A stretch of DNA of 55,878 nt, counting the filler, from Asterionella formosa (taxonomy: Eukaryota), in the NCBI GenBank assembly GCA_002256025.1. It is 4 parts of 4 records of this genome, joined end to end, with 100 filler letters (N's around TTAATTAATTAA, not from the genome) between each part and the next. Parts side by side here need not be neighbours in the genome. Positions count along the whole stretch, not along the records: positions 28,003 to 41,894 come from NKIB01006337.1; 3 more parts are not named here. One strand, written 5' to 3'. Shown one piece after another: positions 19,955-32,818 of this stretch (its first letter is position 1; every line of letters starts with the position of its first letter). The position numbers and the translations under genes were made by a program. Below the pieces are notes generated by a model. The model was not told the origin of the DNA. It saw only the letters and a program-made list of their open reading frames with translations, and did no database searches.

Positions 19955-22900
19955 CCCTCCCTGCTGATCTCGAAACCAACAATTCATAGTCCCATTCATA
20001 ATGTGGGTTGCATGAGTGTCATGAATTTTCTGAGTGACATTCTTTGAAAGTAGGTTTGCAGGATTCTTCAAAGTGTTCACATAGTCAACTCTAATATCCC
20101 CAGCCTTCACCTTTTCTCGAATGAAATGATATCTCACATCAATGTGCTTAGTTCACGAACCAACCTGCTGATTTTTTTATAAGAAAAATTGCACCTGTAT
20201 TGTCTTCTGCAATGATAATGGGCATCTCCATGTATCCAACTTCATTGAGTAGATTCATTATAAATGTAGTTTCCTTTGATCCATCTGATAGAGCCACATA
20301 CTCTGCTTCAGTGCTGTAAACAGTAACAATCTTCTGTCCTTTCGAAATCCAATTCACTAGTGATGCACCACCAATTGTACCCAAATATGCACTTGTCGAT
20401 TTCCTGGTATCTGGATTGTCCCCAAATGAGCTGTCTTCCACGTCTTGAACTCGTAAATCATGTGGTGGTCTCATTTTAAATTTTCTGCTCCTTTCATCAA
20501 TTGCAATGAAATCTAACAAACGTTCAACAGCACACCAATGGGCATCACCTGGATTCTCTAAACGTTGAGAAAGTTCACGACATGCATTTGCGCATATTGC
20601 TTGGTCCAACTTTCTTCACAAAATACAACAATTTTCCAACCATTGAACGATATTCTTTTTGAAGAGTCACTTTGTCTGGATTCTTTCTGGAAATGCTGGG
20701 GTTGATGCATCTCTTGGATACTTTCCAAAAATATCATGACAATCTTGGGGAATAATATTGCACAAAACCCTCCATGCTCGACTCCAAGTAGCGTCCCACT
20801 TCATCTTGGCCCCAATTGTACCACACTCCCAAATGCGTCTTCAAAGGGCCAAGCTCCTTAATTGTGAAGTGTTTATATTTGGCTTTCCAGCAATTGCACA
20901 ATCATCGACATGTGTGGCAATTACTAGGATTAGTGCATAGTTTTCGTCGATGAAGAATACACATGGATCGACCTTGCTTTGCCGCAATCCAACTTTTGTT
21001 AAGTTTTGAACCATCTTCTTGAAGAATTGTAGTGCTGCTTGAACTGTGCCATACATGGCATTCTCCAACTTAATGCATTTGTTTTTCATTGTTTCTTGTG
21101 TTTCGAAACCAAAGTCTAAAACACCATCTGGCCATTCAATATAGATTTGCTTTTCCATGTCTCCGTCAAGAAAAGCAGCTTCAACATCAATGAATTCACA
21201 AACCCATTGTTTTTCTTCAGACTTATCCCATTTGTAAAACGGGAGAGCGAATATCATACGCATTCTTGAAGCATCTGTTGCAACTGGAGCAAATGAATCG
21301 GTGAAATCTAGTCCTGGGATCTGAATCCAGCCTTTCACTAGTCCTACAATACGTCCTTTGAATCGAATACTTTTATCCTGCTCGGATTTCTTCTTGAATA
21401 CCCAGCGTGTGCCTAACAGTTTTCTGCCCTTGAGATTGTCACGAGGAACCATTTTCCAAACATTTCGCTTGTAGAAGTTGTTGATTTTATTTTTAATAGC
21501 AACGGTCCACTGCTTGCTCTCATCTCCTTTCACAGCCTCCTTGTAATGGTTTGGCTCACCAGGATCTGAAACAAGAGTAGTAGAATACGCATAGAACCTC
21601 TCTACTCCTTCTTCACTTTGAAATGGTTTATCATCATCATCTTGATAGGCCGCTTCAGCATAATCTATTTCTTCAATTGATCCTTTGTCCTTGTCATCTA
21701 GTTGTATGTTGCGCCAAGCACTACGTTTGCCAGTAGCTTATTTCCAACCATCAAGGCCTTTCAATTCTCGTTCCAATTTTGCTTTCTTCGAAGCAGCATC
21801 TTTGTTGATCTTATCATCTAACTTCCCAACTGCTTCGGATAGCTGAAATCCTGTTTGTTTCACAACTGGAACAAGTGTTTCAAAATCAATATCCTGCTGG
21901 ATGGGTGGCACAACAGGAAGAACATCTTCGTCCTGCTTTTCATCATCAATTGGAATAACAACCACTTCTGTGTCCCCTTCCACATTGAAATCCCTCAAAC
22001 CTGCGATTGAACATGTTTGGCAATGCCAATCAGCCCAGCGAATGTTTCGACTATTTAAAATCTTTTGTGTCTGAGGGTTAAACATTCGGTAAGTGTCTCC
22101 AGCATGATCATGAGAATAACCAACCATCACACATTTAATGGCCTTTTCTTCGAGTTTTTTTTCTTAGCACCAATTTTCACCCAGCATCCGATCCTGCCAA
22201 AATGCATTAGATGATCGTAAATCATTGGAACCTTTTTGTAAAACTTCTCATCTGCACTCTTTACATCATTAGATGTGGCCACAATGTTCGTGATTCGTGT
22301 GTTGGTGTTGATGGCCTCTGCCCAAAGTAAACCTTGAAATTCATCATTAAATTTTGCAGCAAACATTGCTGCATATGCTTGTTGATGAATGGTTCCAAAT
22401 TGCCTTTCGCTCAACAATTCCATTCTGTTGTGGCCTGTAGGGTGCCGTAAAATCAATTTGAATATTGAATTTGTCACATAGTTCTGTCAAACCTGAGACG
22501 TTTTCACCCGCATTGTCACAACGGATAAACTTGGTAACATACTCAGCCGTTTTGAGTTTAGTCGAAAAATCTTCAATTTTTGAAGCAAGTTCTGACTTCT
22601 TCTTAACAAAAAAAAATCCAAGATTTTCCGGTGTAGTCTTCAACAACAAGGATCCAATAGTTGTTTCCTAAAGTCGACTTCTTATATGGACCGCCTGATA
22701 TCTGTGCACAAACGTTCGCCCGGTTGAGTAGCCTTGCTCATAGTCATTTTAGGAACATTTTTTTGCTTTAGCCTTAGCTAGCGCACATCCTTCACATGTA
22801 TACATCACACCTGTTAATTTGTTACCAAGCGATTTCATAGTAGCCCGCAATGCTGCTTCCCCAATATGTCCATGTTTAGCGTGAGCTTCATTAATGTTCA

Positions 22901-24511
22901 TACCAGTCAATTTCGTTGTGATGACCTCTGCAGATAAGATATCAATCCCACCTGGGTAAATTCCACGAGTTCCTTGGAAATTGTACAAAACACCTGAATG
23001 ATCATGCTTGAAATCTAGCGTCTCGGTTTTTCCTGCTTTTGTCAAAGTCATTTTGTTGTGCTTCATACCGAGTTTCGTATTTACCATCACGTACAAAAGT
23101 ACCAATGCTGGTAATATTTTTATGAAAGGTAGGTGTATAAAGGACATTCTTAAGCAAGAGTGTCTCATTGGTCACTTTGTTTCGCATGCAGACATCTCCG
23201 CGTTCCTTGCAAATGACTTCTTTACCATCGCCTACAACAACGCGTACATTTACTGCTTTCACATTTGTCATATACTTATTGCACATAGAAATATGAATGG
23301 TTGCGCCTGTATCAGCTAACCAACGTTCATTTTCCTCGCTTGATGCGCAAATTCTACTCTCACTGTTTTTGATACTTGCATGGTATGCTTGATTGATCTC
23401 TTCATCCACAATTTCAACCGTCACTCCAATAAATGCATATTCTGTTTCTTCGCATTTAGTGTAGTCCTTTGTGTCTTCAACATGATATCCATAGTCAAAA
23501 AACGTTTTGTTGTTTCAGTCAAGGCAATTATTTCAAAATCATCATCAGTATCAGACTTTTCTTCATGAATTTCGATCGTTTCAACAATACCAACAAACAT
23601 TCCAGTTTCTTTCTTTTCCTTTGCTTGTTTTCTTTTCTTCAGAACAATCCTTAGCAATGTGACCTGCATACTTGTTGCAATTGAAATATTTGACACCTTT
23701 GCCTTTCGTTTCTTTGTTTGCGCCTGCTGAATAGTTCTTGGATTGGCAGTCAGCTGCCTTGTGCCCTTGTTTTCCACAATTCTTGCATAGTCCATTGAAT
23801 TTACCATTTACAGACAAAGCAATCTTGTTGGTATTTAAATCCTTGAACTTCCTTTTGTAGAATGCACGAAGTTTAGATTTAAAATCTGATAAAGTAATAG
23901 TACCCATTCCTTCAATAACAGTCATGACTTCGCTGTACTCTCTAGGTAACTTGTTCATCATGTGCGCAATGGCTTCAACCTCTTTCTTTTCAAATGATGT
24001 ATCAATTTGACGCATTCTGTTCTTGACTTTATCGAGGGCAATGAACCATTCATCTGGGTTTGCTTTAGTACTCTCCAAAGTACAATCGTTGAATTCACCT
24101 GTTAGCTGATGAATCAAATTAGTAACTTGATGAGGAGCATATCGATCCTCCAAATACTGCTAGGCAAGAAAAGCATCTCCATCCATCAAATCATCTGTCT
24201 TGGCAGAATTCACAATCCCAAATGCAATCCCACTGACACTAAGAATCAATAGCTGATATGCCTTGTCATTCAACTTGTACTTCTTCTTCTCGTCATCATC
24301 AGTAGACTCCAAATAGGCATCATCATTGATTGGCTTCGTGTCTTTGGCATAAACATGCCTAAAACCTTAAGATTTCGCAAGCTGAGGAGTCTTGATAGTC
24401 CACTCAAGCCAAGCAGTTTTTCTTCCATCAAACTTGATCAAGCGAACAGTCTCACCTGATTTCTCATCGGCTGTAACCATGTCTCTAGACCTGTAGGTTT
24501 GTTTTAAAACA

Positions 24512-26659: not shown

Positions 26660-27902
26660 GTATCTAACTAGAAGTAGTAGTATTTGTTGAATATATGAGC
26701 TTATTAATTAATCCTTATGTATAACTCATTTCCTGAACTGACATCAAAGTATAGAATGGGTGTTAGTCGAGTTCTCTCATTATTGAATTCCGATATATTT
26801 GACATAACCCCAACTCTATATATATCTGTATCGATGTGCAGGATTGCTCACTCTCCCACACTTGAGGGAAAACCTTTTACCTATGAAAAGGTTTGATACG
26901 ACGAATATTAATTCGTTCGGTAATATGTATAGTGCGTTGAAAAGTAACTGTACCATTGGCATGTACTTGAATAATAGTATAAGGACCTCGTCCACGATCA
27001 TCCAAAGTAGTAGGATTATCCAATAATATTAAAATCTCGTCACCCACTTTGTAATCATAAGATCGACGACGGAAATTTGCACGATGTAAACGTTCGTCAA
27101 TTATCACCTGTCGACGTTGATGTATTAATTGTAAATCTGTAATCAAAGGAATATTTAATATCATATCACGTTGGAAAACCCATGCTCCTGGTGAAATACG
27201 TAATATACTATGAATAGTAGCTCGAGCTGCATATGACGCAGCTGCAAAACATGTATCCACAATATTTTGGGCTTGAAATTCATTGATTGGAGGATGAGCC
27301 TTTAACATAACTCGTAGACTATTGCTGATAGATTGATGGAAACGTTCACAGATAGCATTTGCTTGTGGATTCTTTACTGTGGTAGTCACATCTTTGATTC
27401 CATTCAATACTAACATGTGTAAGAAAGGAGCACCAGTAAATTCACCTCCATTGTCATGTATACAACGTTCTGGACGGGGATATCTGGCTAACCAATCATT
27501 TTCAAATTTCATTGCAATATATTCTGATGTTTTATTGATGATACGTGAAATTTCTGCTAAATTGGTGACTGTGTCAATACAAGTTAGAGCACGAAATTCA
27601 ATCGTTTGAGCAGCCACTGTTATCTTCCATGGACCAATTAGATCTACTGCGACTTCTGACCATGGTAATAATAATGCATTCCTGGGTGGAAGTTCACCAA
27701 AACCAGTACCAGGTAATTTTGTACGTTGACATGCTTCACATACTCTTACAATATGTTCCACTCTTGTTTTTAATATAGGGTGATAAAAATGTGTAGCAAT
27801 TGTAGCATTTAATCTTGTCATACCCACATGAGCTAACATCTGATGATACCAATTAATAATAGGATCCAATAATGATGTAGGAATAGCAATACGCCAAGTA
27901 TC
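26660..27902 (-). mobile_element. 3' end of a Ty3/gypsy LTR retrotransposon: intact integrase frame (27869-26877), PPT and 3' LTR (from 26850; far boundary uncertain)
   Basis: HQMLAH...CEAC zinc motif, VDLIGP, DNGGEF, PQANAICER, GPY motif; integrase is the last domain; GGGAGAG precedes TGAGCA; LTR region matches 40690-40906. Confidence 0.92.
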
Positions 27903-28002
27903 NNNNNNNNNNNNNNNNNNNNNNNNNNNNNNNNNNNNNNNNNNNNTTAATTAATTAANNNNNNNNNNNNNNNNNNNNNNNNNNNNNNNNNNNNNNNNNN
28001 NN
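27903..28002. other. Artificial contig spacer
   Basis: N44-TTAATTAATTAA-N44. Confidence 0.97.
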
Positions 28003-28651: not shown

Positions 28652-30716
28652 ACAATATGACAAAATGGATTACCTGGTATGTCGCAGCATAATGACCCAT
28701 GTGCTCGAATGAATATGAATTGTAATTGTTCATCGTGAGAAGGTGAGATATTTACAGGGTACATACAATCTACACACGAATCAACCACAGGACGGAATCC
28801 AGAATTCGTTCGTATGCCATACTTGATGTCGAAATAGGGAGACAAATACGAGTACCCAATGTATCTATGAAAATCGTGCATGGATTTGTACGGTTTACCC
28901 GGTATACAAAGTACACTCAATGCAGTATGTGACTAGCATTTTGAGTTAACTAGCAGTACCAAGAATGTCATGCAATTTCGAGGTGGTGTTGGATATGATC
29001 TCACATCATGACAATGAATAGCAATTCAGATCGAAAATTTTTGGCCTGCTAAGATTGAACTGGCACCAAAAATACCAAAAAGTTCAAATTTACTGTTTTG
29101 ATTTGCTAGGCAATTAGGTCATCATGAAGAATAACTTGTATGAACAAGGACCAGCATTGTTTTTTTAGTTGTATGAGAAAATCTAAAGTCACAACGAAAA
29201 AGGAGAATTCATACAGTCTGGAAGAAAGTAAGCAAAACTAATTTGAGGTTGCCCTCTGATGGCTGGGGTCTAATGAGCAAGCTGTCCAAATTTTCATTCC
29301 ACCTTCTTGTCTGTATACTTTCTTTGTGTATGATTGTGTTGCTCCTTACACCATTTTCTTTTGACATCGTCATGACACTGCATAGTTCATCCCTCATTAT
29401 TCTGTGTCCAATGGGTGATACAATGACTGTAGGTTTTCCGCTTCAACTTTTGTTGAAACATTCAACATGAACCATTCAAATCATTTCGTCTGCTTTCACT
29501 TATCATGCTATTTTCTGTTTCTAACATTTTCCCGACGGCCTTAAAAGACACCAAATATTAAAGCAGTAGTCGTGACTACGAAATAAATGGTTGATTGGTG
29601 CTTCGGAGGACTCGGTGAATTCGGCGAGAGGGAGATTCTGGTTTTTCTTGGTCCAGGCACCATAATAGATTTCAATGAAAGACAATCAGCTTTGGAAGTC
29701 CATTCGAGCGATACTGGGCCACTGGATTTCAGGAAAGCAGGGCGTAGAAGAATGCTGACCCTGGAGATGGATCTGACAGAAATCTTGGATCTTGAATATT
29801 CAGTGGAAGGCATCCTTTCTCGGATTTTTAAATACTTTCAATGCTCTTAGCCATTGAAACTCAGGTGAACCTAATCCAAGGAAACAACTCAAGGAAGTAT
29901 CTTCTAGCTACTACCATTCAAATAATGAGAATAAGAAAGATGGCAATGAAGGCAACAGTCAAGGAAATGGCTCAAACGCAATCACAGAGATCATCGAAGC
30001 GGAATCAATAACAACAAAAGCAATCGCAATAACAACGATGATCGCTTCTTGGCTGATACTAGAAGTCCCAATTGGAATAAGGAAAAATAACAAGGAAAAC
30101 AAGATAACCTCTAGTTGAAGAGGTGGAATGGTATTAATATGTGATAAATTTCATGTGAATTAAATGTTATCTAATGAAATTTGTGCAGTGAACAACAAAG
30201 AAATGGAACTAGAAAATTACAACAATAGTGAATATGTGTCCTGCACCCAATCATGAGGAATAAGTTTATTTACTATTGGCGTAAGGTTGTATGGTATTTC
30301 AGTTGCTGTGCAGATTAGACATGATTACAGTGCTCGTGCATAAATCGACAAGGTGAATGGTCAAGATCTTTCCGTGATCCAAATTATCAACAAAATGCTT
30401 ATAAATCGACGCACTGGTGGAAATCTACAACTACGTATTTAGTCTATTACTACGTCGACTAGTATGCATCTTATTAAATTCTCATTGTTTCTGTTAAATG
30501 AGGTTATACATTTAATTTTATTTGATTGCTTTACTGTTGTGCTAATCAGACAAGTAGCTAACATCATTATATGAAGAAGCAAGGAGTAAAGGAACTAAAC
30601 TCGCTGTTGTTACGTGTGTACTGGTGTAATGATGCAAACAATCATTTGACTAGCTAGTTATTTACATGGTGCTAGATCATTACTAGCGCACAAGATAAAG
30701 ATGCGCCAGTAGAATA

Positions 30717-30934
30717 AATTGTTAAGTAAATTTTATAGTACGCTAGTATTGTTAAAGAACTCGACAATTGTGGAGGTTGTGAAGTCGCACTTGGCCCCCC
30801 AGAGGGCCTTAGACCTGCTTGTCGTCTGCCTCACCACCCGGAATCCAAGGGACTACATAAACAAAGCAGGTGGAGAATGCGGGAATCGAGCCCGCCACCT
30901 CGGAAGGTGAGCCAACCAACTAAGCTATTCCCCT
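30717..30934 (-). mobile_element. tRNA-derived SINE, 218 bp, flanked by an 18-bp target-site duplication
   Basis: AGATGCGCCAGTAGAATA at 30699-30716 and 30935-30952; minus-strand head GGGGAATAGCTTAGTTGG (A box) ... GCGGGCTCGATTCCCGC (T arm/B box) ATTCTCCACC; AT-rich 3' end. Confidence 0.85.
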
Positions 30935-31157
30935 AGATGCGCCAGTAGAATATATACCACATCATCTTGCTTAATGATGATCTGGTGATACTATCACTTA
31001 TGACAATTATGTTTTAATGTTAATTTTACATTTATTCTTTACTGAAAGAAACCTCAATCGTATCTTGTCCATTTGCTTTTTCCATTTTTCACTCATTTGA
31101 ATCTCCAAGATTCAGACATCATCGCCATTGGAAACTGAAGGAACTGTTGTGAAGAGC

Positions 31158-31645
31158 ATGTCAGAGCTGAAGTTAAAGCGTAAAAGTATTTCTATCGATA
31201 CAAATTAGCAGCATTAAATTTTATCAGTGAAGGGAATAGCTTTAGAGAAGTTGCTTTTAAACTTGCCATGAGCATTGGAACTGTTTAAAATGCAAAGAAA
31301 AAGAAGGAGGACTTATTGATGGAAGGATAATCGATGCAATCAATAAAAATGGCTTATCTTAATAGCGGGACAGAAATAAACTCAGTGTTTTGGAGACGGG
31401 TTGGTACTCTTCGCGCAAATGGATATCCAATTAGTAGACCCATCCTACAAAGCAAAACTTTATCGATTGCCAATGCATGAGATGCAAATCATCTTCAAAA
31501 ATAGATGAAAAGAATCAATGTACAATCCTATGCTATTTGTTGAGAGTCTGAGAATGTAGACACTGATATGGCTGAAGAATGGAAAGCTTTATTGGCTAGT
31601 TTTAAACATGAATAAGACTTGATACTTTTATCGAGATCTCCCCAA
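31158..31645 (+). pseudogene. pogo/Tigger-like (CENP-B HTH) transposase relic
   Basis: Translates MSELKLKRKSISIDTKLAALNFISEGNSFREVAFKLAMSIGTV*, then ANGYPISRPILQSK, then *ESENVDTDMAEEWK and FYRDLP, with stops and frameshifts. Confidence 0.7.
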
Positions 31646-32818
31646 TTCAACGCTCAAGGTTGATTTGGCCACACTGTGGGTTGGCAAAATGCCGCTCGTG
31701 TGTTTAGTACACTCGGATCAAAGGTGACCATTTATTCTCGTCTATATTTTTGCCAATCTTGATGATTCCTCAACGAGAGAATCTGCCTTTTTTAAAAGAA
31801 GCATTTGGATCCTTTTTTCGAGACCTAATCTGGAAGAATCTATGGATATAACGTTTCTTTGGACCAGTTTTCTGATTTCTTAGTCATGAGACAGCAATTT
31901 TTCCAATCGCTCTGTGATGAGAGTATAGGAATATATTTCATGCTCTCCATTGAATTTGTAGTCTTCAGCTTTGCGCAAATCTTTAAGTATTCCTTGAATC
32001 ATCGATAATCAATCTATATTTGAGAAAATATTCTCAAAAATGTGAGTAGCTACAGGTACTATTCAAGGATCAGAACAAGAGAAATTGGAAGTGAAGAATT
32101 ATTTTTCATATCAATAAAAAATCTCGGTGTGCAATAGAAATCAATCAGGTTCTACAAAAGTGGGCCGATTTAAAGAATTGATCATTTTCGAATATATATG
32201 TCTTCCTCATTCAATTAAAAAAAATACATGTCTTACCCCTTCGACTCGAATTTGAACACCTGCCTGGCGTCACCCTCCCCTCAATTTCCACAATGCTGTT
32301 TCCGCAGCTTTTTCTGAAAGCTTCAATATTTTCACCCGAAAAATCGTTTTTTATTCTTCACCATCATTCTGGGCACATCCTCCATGATCAAAGCCGATGA
32401 ACATGAATTGTTGTGTTTGGAAGGAAGCTTGAAAATACATTGTGCCCCCCTCCTCCTGGAGCCTGCTCAAGCATTTATTGTCTCTTCGTATCTAGAGTAT
32501 TGCTACTATCACAAGTTTGTTTTGTATTTCTGTCAGGGCTGCAGCATGTCAAGCAGCGTAGGGGATAATGCTGACGATCGAGCGAACTTCTGTTTTAGAA
32601 AATTATTGTGAATAAAATGGGTGGCAACAGTCTCTATGACTGGATTGTTGATGCTCTATTCATTATTTGCACTTTACAATGTAAATATATTCTGAAAAAT
32701 GATAGGAATGAATCGCAATGCGATGATATGTTCTGGAAGTGAGGAGTGAAATCCTGTGGGAATCAATAAATATATGTCATAGGCAAAGGACAAAGCGAAT
32801 TGCACAAGAAGGAACAAC

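Follow-up and report, generated by a model that had tools for sequence, protein, structure and literature searches.

The window, i.e. the whole stretch of 55,878 nucleotides (filler included) from Asterionella formosa that was analysed, carries a 218-bp insert that is, with near certainty, a short interspersed element (SINE). The element is short, non-coding and interspersed, and it has many copies with fixed ends. The window copy is very probably a full-length, moderately old member of a subfamily that derives from tRNA-Ala(AGC) and has a LINE-derived tail. Judged from sequence comparison, the SINE is in all likelihood paired with a young LINE lineage that has endonuclease (APE), reverse transcriptase (RT), RNase H-type and zinc-knuckle regions. 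This defines a diatom SINE family with a parent tRNA, a target preference and a candidate partner LINE. The pairing makes the RNA-recognition rule of a little-studied group of RNase H LINEs testable, and the dispersed SINE insertions could serve as population markers.

The insertion, its copies and its age

An earlier note on this DNA reported a perfect 18-bp direct repeat that brackets a 218-bp insert, and both figures are exact. The repeat, AGATGCGCCAGTAGAATA, is perfect in both copies (30699-30716 and 30935-30952), and the insert between them corresponds to G000:C6337:2715-2932 of the 68-Mb assembly. The window consists of several contigs with N spacers between them. On the segment that carries the insert, a PPR protein has a diatom protein as its only named non-plant match, and the sequencing runs that contain the stretch are mostly from freshwater; both fit a diatom host, though weakly. 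One RNA run contains a fraction of 0.07 of the words of the stretch. On the minus strand, TATA (30956-30953) lies immediately 5' of the first copy of the duplication. One variable base (30934) precedes the head, which starts at 30933. In the order of the element, the features are:

30935..30952, minus strand: target-site duplication on the element's 5' side (sequence and flank comparison)
30871..30933, minus strand: head derived from tRNA-Ala(AGC), 63 nt (tRNA comparison and folds)
30916..30927, minus strand: TAGCTTAGTTGG, the Pol III A box according to the box consensus (sequence; aligns with the D arm of the host tRNA-Ala)
30896..30909, minus strand: short hairpin in place of the anticodon arm and variable loop (tRNA alignment, sister-head patterns)
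30879..30895, minus strand: T arm with the B box at 30892-30882 (sequence)
30813..30870, minus strand: middle body, a long predicted hairpin (fold z -2.2) common to sister subfamily B
30717..30810, minus strand: LINE-like 3' tail, with a GC hairpin (30808-30793) followed by the LINE-aligned part (30790-30720)
30699..30716, minus strand: target-site duplication on the element's 3' side (sequence and flank comparison)

A search of the genome with the insert gave 451 candidates, and the 40 that were scored match most of its length, all at 87-100% identity. The last 94 nt, which are specific to the subfamily, gave 184 candidates (40 scored); both counts are lower bounds and not copy numbers. Both ends are common to all 30 fetched copies, the flanks are mostly unrelated, and a fixed 155-nt body follows the head across copies. 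A duplication scoring at least 10 was found in 20 of the 27 copies with enough flank (two pairs among these 27 represent the same site), compared to none of 698 mismatched flank pairs. The duplications are mostly 11-21 bp long. TATA or ATAT is present at the start of the duplication, 13-24 nt before the head (-24..-13), in 20 of 23 independent copies, while 29 control windows average 1.9, with 5 at most. The 23 copies are those that remain after leaving out two repeated sites, four short or contig-end flanks and one truncated copy. Some copies are 5'-truncated and have intact tails (L127, L129, L131), as target-primed reverse transcription would leave them. The earlier note had expected a multi-copy element with an individual duplication for each copy and had recognized the Pol III-type SINE architecture (tRNA head, body, long duplication); the copies and their duplications bear out this call.

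At two loci (L134, L135), about 1 kb of sequence holds two or three pieces of the SINE that face in opposite directions. A contig end (L282/L010, the end of G000:C14149) has 15 nt of the duplication of the window copy and also its head variants, but its 3' part and flank differ, pointing to an assembly chimera or gene conversion. Near the insertion, window positions 31158-32100 (plus strand) hold decayed, frameshifted remains that recur in contigs of other runs. Presumably these resemble the N-terminus of a pogo/Tigger transposase, a label for which no search passed. Decayed retroelement frames are found at 20148-24159 and 26877-27950; from their motifs, we take them to be Copia-type frames (RT, protease, gag-like) and Gypsy-type integrase frames.

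The proposal of the earlier note that the insertion is recent holds only in part: the insertion is shared yet not ancient, but the window copy lacks an identical counterpart and has a mutated B box. It differs from the majority sequence by five substitutions and a 3-nt insertion. Its divergence is 2.3%, with a median of 5% for the copies, both values being biased low because the set was picked for likeness to the window copy. The nearest other copy is 95% identical, and none of the other scored copies is identical. The filled site was encountered in runs X2 and X3, which stem from two other studies. Contigs of X2 span both junctions; in X3, one contig spans the head junction and one reaches 29 letters into the tail. 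The note had also proposed to look for an empty-site allele in reads. No joint skipping the insert is listed in X2 and X3, the two of four runs that reach the junctions (X5 and X12 stop short of them and are hence uninformative on this point). Because the filled site is present in samples of at least two other studies, the insertion is neither ancient nor new. The changed B box makes the window copy probably a dead passenger.

The tRNA-Ala head

The tRNA-Ala-like origin proposed by the earlier note agrees with the comparison to host tRNAs. Among 55 unique tRNA sequences from the assembly (a nuclear and organellar set that is incomplete, with 63 of 3876 candidates scored), the majority head (L002) matches the nuclear tRNA-Ala(AGC) best, with a score of 69.5 as opposed to 45 for the best non-Ala tRNA. 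Three tRNA-rich contigs of low GC content (23-29%; G000:C15105, C13186 and C13960) are organelle genomes, one of which is possibly from a second organism in the assembly.

The head has 63 nt, and is thus 10 nt shorter than the host tRNA-Ala(AGC) (73 nt). All parts that had been described are seen: the acceptor stem GGGGAAT/ATTCTCC, the A box, the CACCT-TCCG-AGGTG hairpin and the T arm. The acceptor stem is followed by the discriminator A (A73), and the G3-U70 pair is retained. Remodelling of the anticodon arm into the hairpin is confirmed, but the replacement of the arm that had been stated is not borne out. In the alignment to tRNA-Ala, the former variable loop of the tRNA supplies the 3' side of the hairpin; thus, the anticodon arm was shortened. 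The nucleotide loss falls within this arm, with an ambiguous exact deletion point. Similarly, the T loop CTCGATT is correct for the window copy but is not the family form: most copies have TTCGATT, and the C at 30890, within the B box, is a change from T that is private to the window copy. The majority head is predicted to fold as a cloverleaf without linkers (z -2.6). With its private changes at 30913 and 30890, the head of the window copy is instead predicted as a long hairpin.

Sister heads retrieved by pattern search have an unchanged CACC/GGTG stem, and their loops differ between subfamilies. The four outer hairpin pairs hold in 88-100% of 42 heads, which suggests selection on the stem, an argument limited by the descent of these 42 heads from few founder events. 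The exact head pattern has no match in the JGI metagenomes; a looser pattern found a single contig, which carries a subfamily-B copy.

It is tempting to speculate that the family maintains its head as a minimal mimic of alanine tRNA that lacks an anticodon, with transcripts that would be cut, CCA-tailed and alanylated, and that it is also the first SINE shown to use an RNase H LINE of the Ambal type that targets TA. We consider this combined reading unlikely. It is raised because G3-U70 and A73 are retained, both bases of one T-stem pair depart from the tRNA, and the CACC/GGTG stem is kept amid swaps of loops and tails. The heads of tmRNA and mascRNA are a parallel for such cut, CCA-tailed and alanylated transcripts.

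The tail, the candidate partner LINE and rival readings

The body had been described as about 150 nt of unrelated sequence with an AT-rich end devoid of poly(A). Length and end composition are correct (the tail end is A/T-rich, without poly(A)), but "unrelated" is not, as the body consists of a shared hairpin and a LINE-like tail. From the pattern search for sister heads, 20 loci were picked, most of which represent subfamily B (about 245 nt). This has the head and the middle hairpin in common with the type seen in the window but differs in its rear half. Three of the 20 loci (L153-L155; G000:C351, C2882 and C1063) form a third tRNA-headed family, whose anticodon-like arm is longer, whose body differs and which carries a second motif resembling a B box. 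Two window-type copies (L151, L152) retain little of the middle hairpin; the breaks lie at its base. A LINE origin of this hairpin was not found in the fetched LINE loci, apart from embedded SINE copies. For subfamily B, the likeness to a partner LINE is at the motif level, with none of 15 ends scoring above its own shuffle maximum. A 50-nt match to this subfamily (L218:2637-2686) was not counted as a LINE terminus, as it lies about 550 nt before the end of that LINE.

A genome search with the PF00075 profile found one decayed element that passes (L136), and its protein, used as query, gave 100 relatives among 129 candidates. Among these relatives, the members of one young LINE family (L207-L211) are 91-99% alike over long stretches. 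Their last ~70 nt align with window positions 30790-30720 at 66-71% identity and are co-terminal with the SINE. The score of 59 exceeds the maximum of 40 in 2000 dinucleotide shuffles (0/2000) and that of 41 in 1860 bins of the window (0/1860). The dependence on a LINE that the earlier note had assumed is supported by this homologous tail, which emerged from the kind of comparison with resident LINE 3' ends that the note had proposed. The scores of 13 older RNase H LINE ends (16-35) do not exceed those of their shuffles, so that the match is specific to the young lineage; the older ends were rejected as tail donor.

SINE and LINE tails have the same predicted minimum free energy fold, a GC hairpin followed by a stem that closes an inner hairpin. 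The GC hairpin pairs in both despite a different sequence, the register of the alignment being uncertain there. The closing stem is nearly invariant and shows no compensatory change in the alignment, and with z -1.4, the stability of the tail fold by itself is unremarkable. Most of the 28 loci with a LINE tail run into ATAT or similar.

Pieces of the young LINE's ORF were found in L270 (with stops and frameshifts), L269 and L208; no intact full-length partner LINE was found among the loci examined. A profile of the LINE homologues matches the R2 RT (E 1e-9) and exonuclease III (E 0.002). The RNase H-type region has invariant D237, D313, H362 and D383 and a near-invariant E279, and the zinc-knuckle has a CxxC..H..C motif. 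The RNase H stretch of L208 alone matched nothing in Pfam or PDB, and the putative RNase H assignment is based on the conserved D-E-D-H-D pattern together with the PF00075 match of L136. The partner LINE, a long diatom element with APE, RT, RNase H-type and zinc-knuckle regions, resembles Ambal elements in its domain content, and we use "Ambal-like" as a lead only.

The RT of the RNase H LINEs scores below the cut-off of Pfam PF00078. A PF00078 search returned mostly a young APE-RT family, Gypsy-type elements and telomerase. The APE-RT family (L060-L073, L093, L100, L110) is a GC-rich LINE that occurs as rearranged, tandem-like pieces, with a hairpin resembling a B box a little upstream of an A run. 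A 1058-aa reverse transcriptase frame (L109, G000:C10287) is, judged by its motifs, presumably telomerase-like. In a genome search with PF14529, none of 42 candidates passed.

The tail closest to that of the SINE (score 84-88) belongs to a non-coding element of ~1.2 kb and not to a coding LINE. This pyrimidine-rich element (L277:151-1400, minus strand; also L253, L244, L247-L249, L252 and L254) has its own duplication in (TA)n, and is devoid of a tRNA head and of similarity to LINE ORFs. Like the SINE, it may be a non-autonomous passenger of this LINE lineage. Because the closest tail is found on this element, the source of the tail seems to be a LINE branch outside the recovered set, which suggests that both passengers took their tails from this unrecovered branch. 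As the tail is only about 70% identical to the coding LINE, the actual donor family may have died out or be absent from the assembly.

The same modest identity leaves some room for a real SINE that is moved by another LINE with relaxed recognition, its tail being a relic of an earlier partner. The obvious candidate is the GC-rich APE-RT family (L060-L073), which is younger than any other non-LTR element found (all 40 scored pieces are 99-100% alike). However, its tail has no similarity to that of the SINE (there is no match at E<1 except for a 13-nt match inside the ORF, E 0.5), and it was rejected as tail donor. Moreover, it ends in an A run, which the SINE lacks, and the TA targets of the SINE agree with the junctions of the RNase H LINE. 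We thus regard such a switch of partner as quite improbable.

Readings that dispense with a SINE fare worse. A non-autonomous DNA transposon (MITE) could be suspected from the decayed transposase-like remains about 200 bp from the insert, and an assembly artefact from the contig end L282, which looks chimeric for the window copy. Against these, the alignment of SINE copies has no terminal inverted repeats, the duplications vary in length, the 5'-truncated copies keep their tails, and both junctions of the insertion are present in run X2, so that we give hardly any credence to either. It is also very unlikely that a functional tRNA-like or tmRNA-like RNA gene, or a processed tRNA pseudogene, is at hand rather than a mobile family. 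G3-U70, A73 and the compact cloverleaf predicted for the majority form would fit such a gene, as would faint tmRNA-model matches over the T arm. These matches reach, however, only 8-13 bits against cut-offs of 47-84, the window copy's head is no longer predicted as a cloverleaf, and dozens of dispersed, independently decaying copies have their own duplications and the fixed body. ARAGORN reports no tRNA in the window, and Rfam nothing at gathering score; within 29500-32200 there are only matches of 8-20 bits. The check for a functional tRNA or known ncRNA over the insert, which had been proposed along with the SINE call, was accordingly negative, and assignment to a tRNA, tmRNA or other Rfam RNA was rejected.

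For a SINE paired with the RNase H LINE, amplification may be envisaged by analogy to established SINE biology. Pol III would transcribe master copies from the A and B boxes, and the LINE protein would bind the stem-loops in the tail of the SINE RNA. It would nick the DNA at TA dinucleotides, reverse transcription would be primed on the A/U-rich end of the RNA, and a target-site duplication would be left behind after insertion.

Comparison with known systems

In diatoms, SINEs have so far been listed as annotation classes. The first report is a "Putative SINE" class in Phaeodactylum tricornutum (13 copies, 1,454 bp; PMC5859163), and classes are also given for Cyclotella cryptica, Skeletonema tropicum and Pleurosigma pacificum (PMC7466962, PMC11032307, PMC12803021). 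One of the counts in these four papers amounts to 0.065% of the genome. In the available text of these papers, the SINEs are annotation counts without head, partner or target; the family described here is set apart from them by these descriptions and not by sequences. The earlier note considered the family to be probably undescribed. This is supported insofar as the open literature, in the parts available, contains no diatom SINE family, but has to be qualified since the annotations of several diatom genomes already include SINEs. Searched by title and abstract, a mostly open-access literature yielded no description of a SINE family or SINE-LINE pair from a diatom, and the repeat libraries in the supplements of diatom genome papers may include this family. 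The Ambal clade is listed in PMC5753468, and "LINE/Ambal" is abundant in a diatom according to the available text of PMC12803021.

With RTE-mobilised SINEs such as Au (Nishiyama and Ohshima 2018, PMC6007223), as far as the available text describes them, the family has in common the lack of poly(A), a T-rich end and duplications that often begin with T. Unlike these, its signature is TATA at the site, and its partner has a putative RNase H-type domain. The T stretch of the RTE type ~10 nt upstream of the duplication is absent (T fraction 0.30 versus 0.33 in the background).

The closest parallel is provided by the stringent SINE-LINE pairs, SINE2/tRNA elements with LINE-derived 3' tails (Ohshima 2013, PMC3747384; the SINE2/tRNA class is named in PMC5753468). 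Going by the available text of these sources, the shared traits are a tRNA head with A and B boxes, an unrelated middle, a LINE-homologous tail with stem-loops and a duplication of variable length. Distinct are the candidate partner, an APE-RT-RNase H LINE, the head cut to a 63-nt predicted cloverleaf, and the absence of both poly(A) and a repeated tail unit. The host, a diatom, also differs (the word "diatom" does not occur in the 2013 review). A tRNA-derived SINE with a LINE tail is thus a familiar textbook mechanism that is little described in diatoms.
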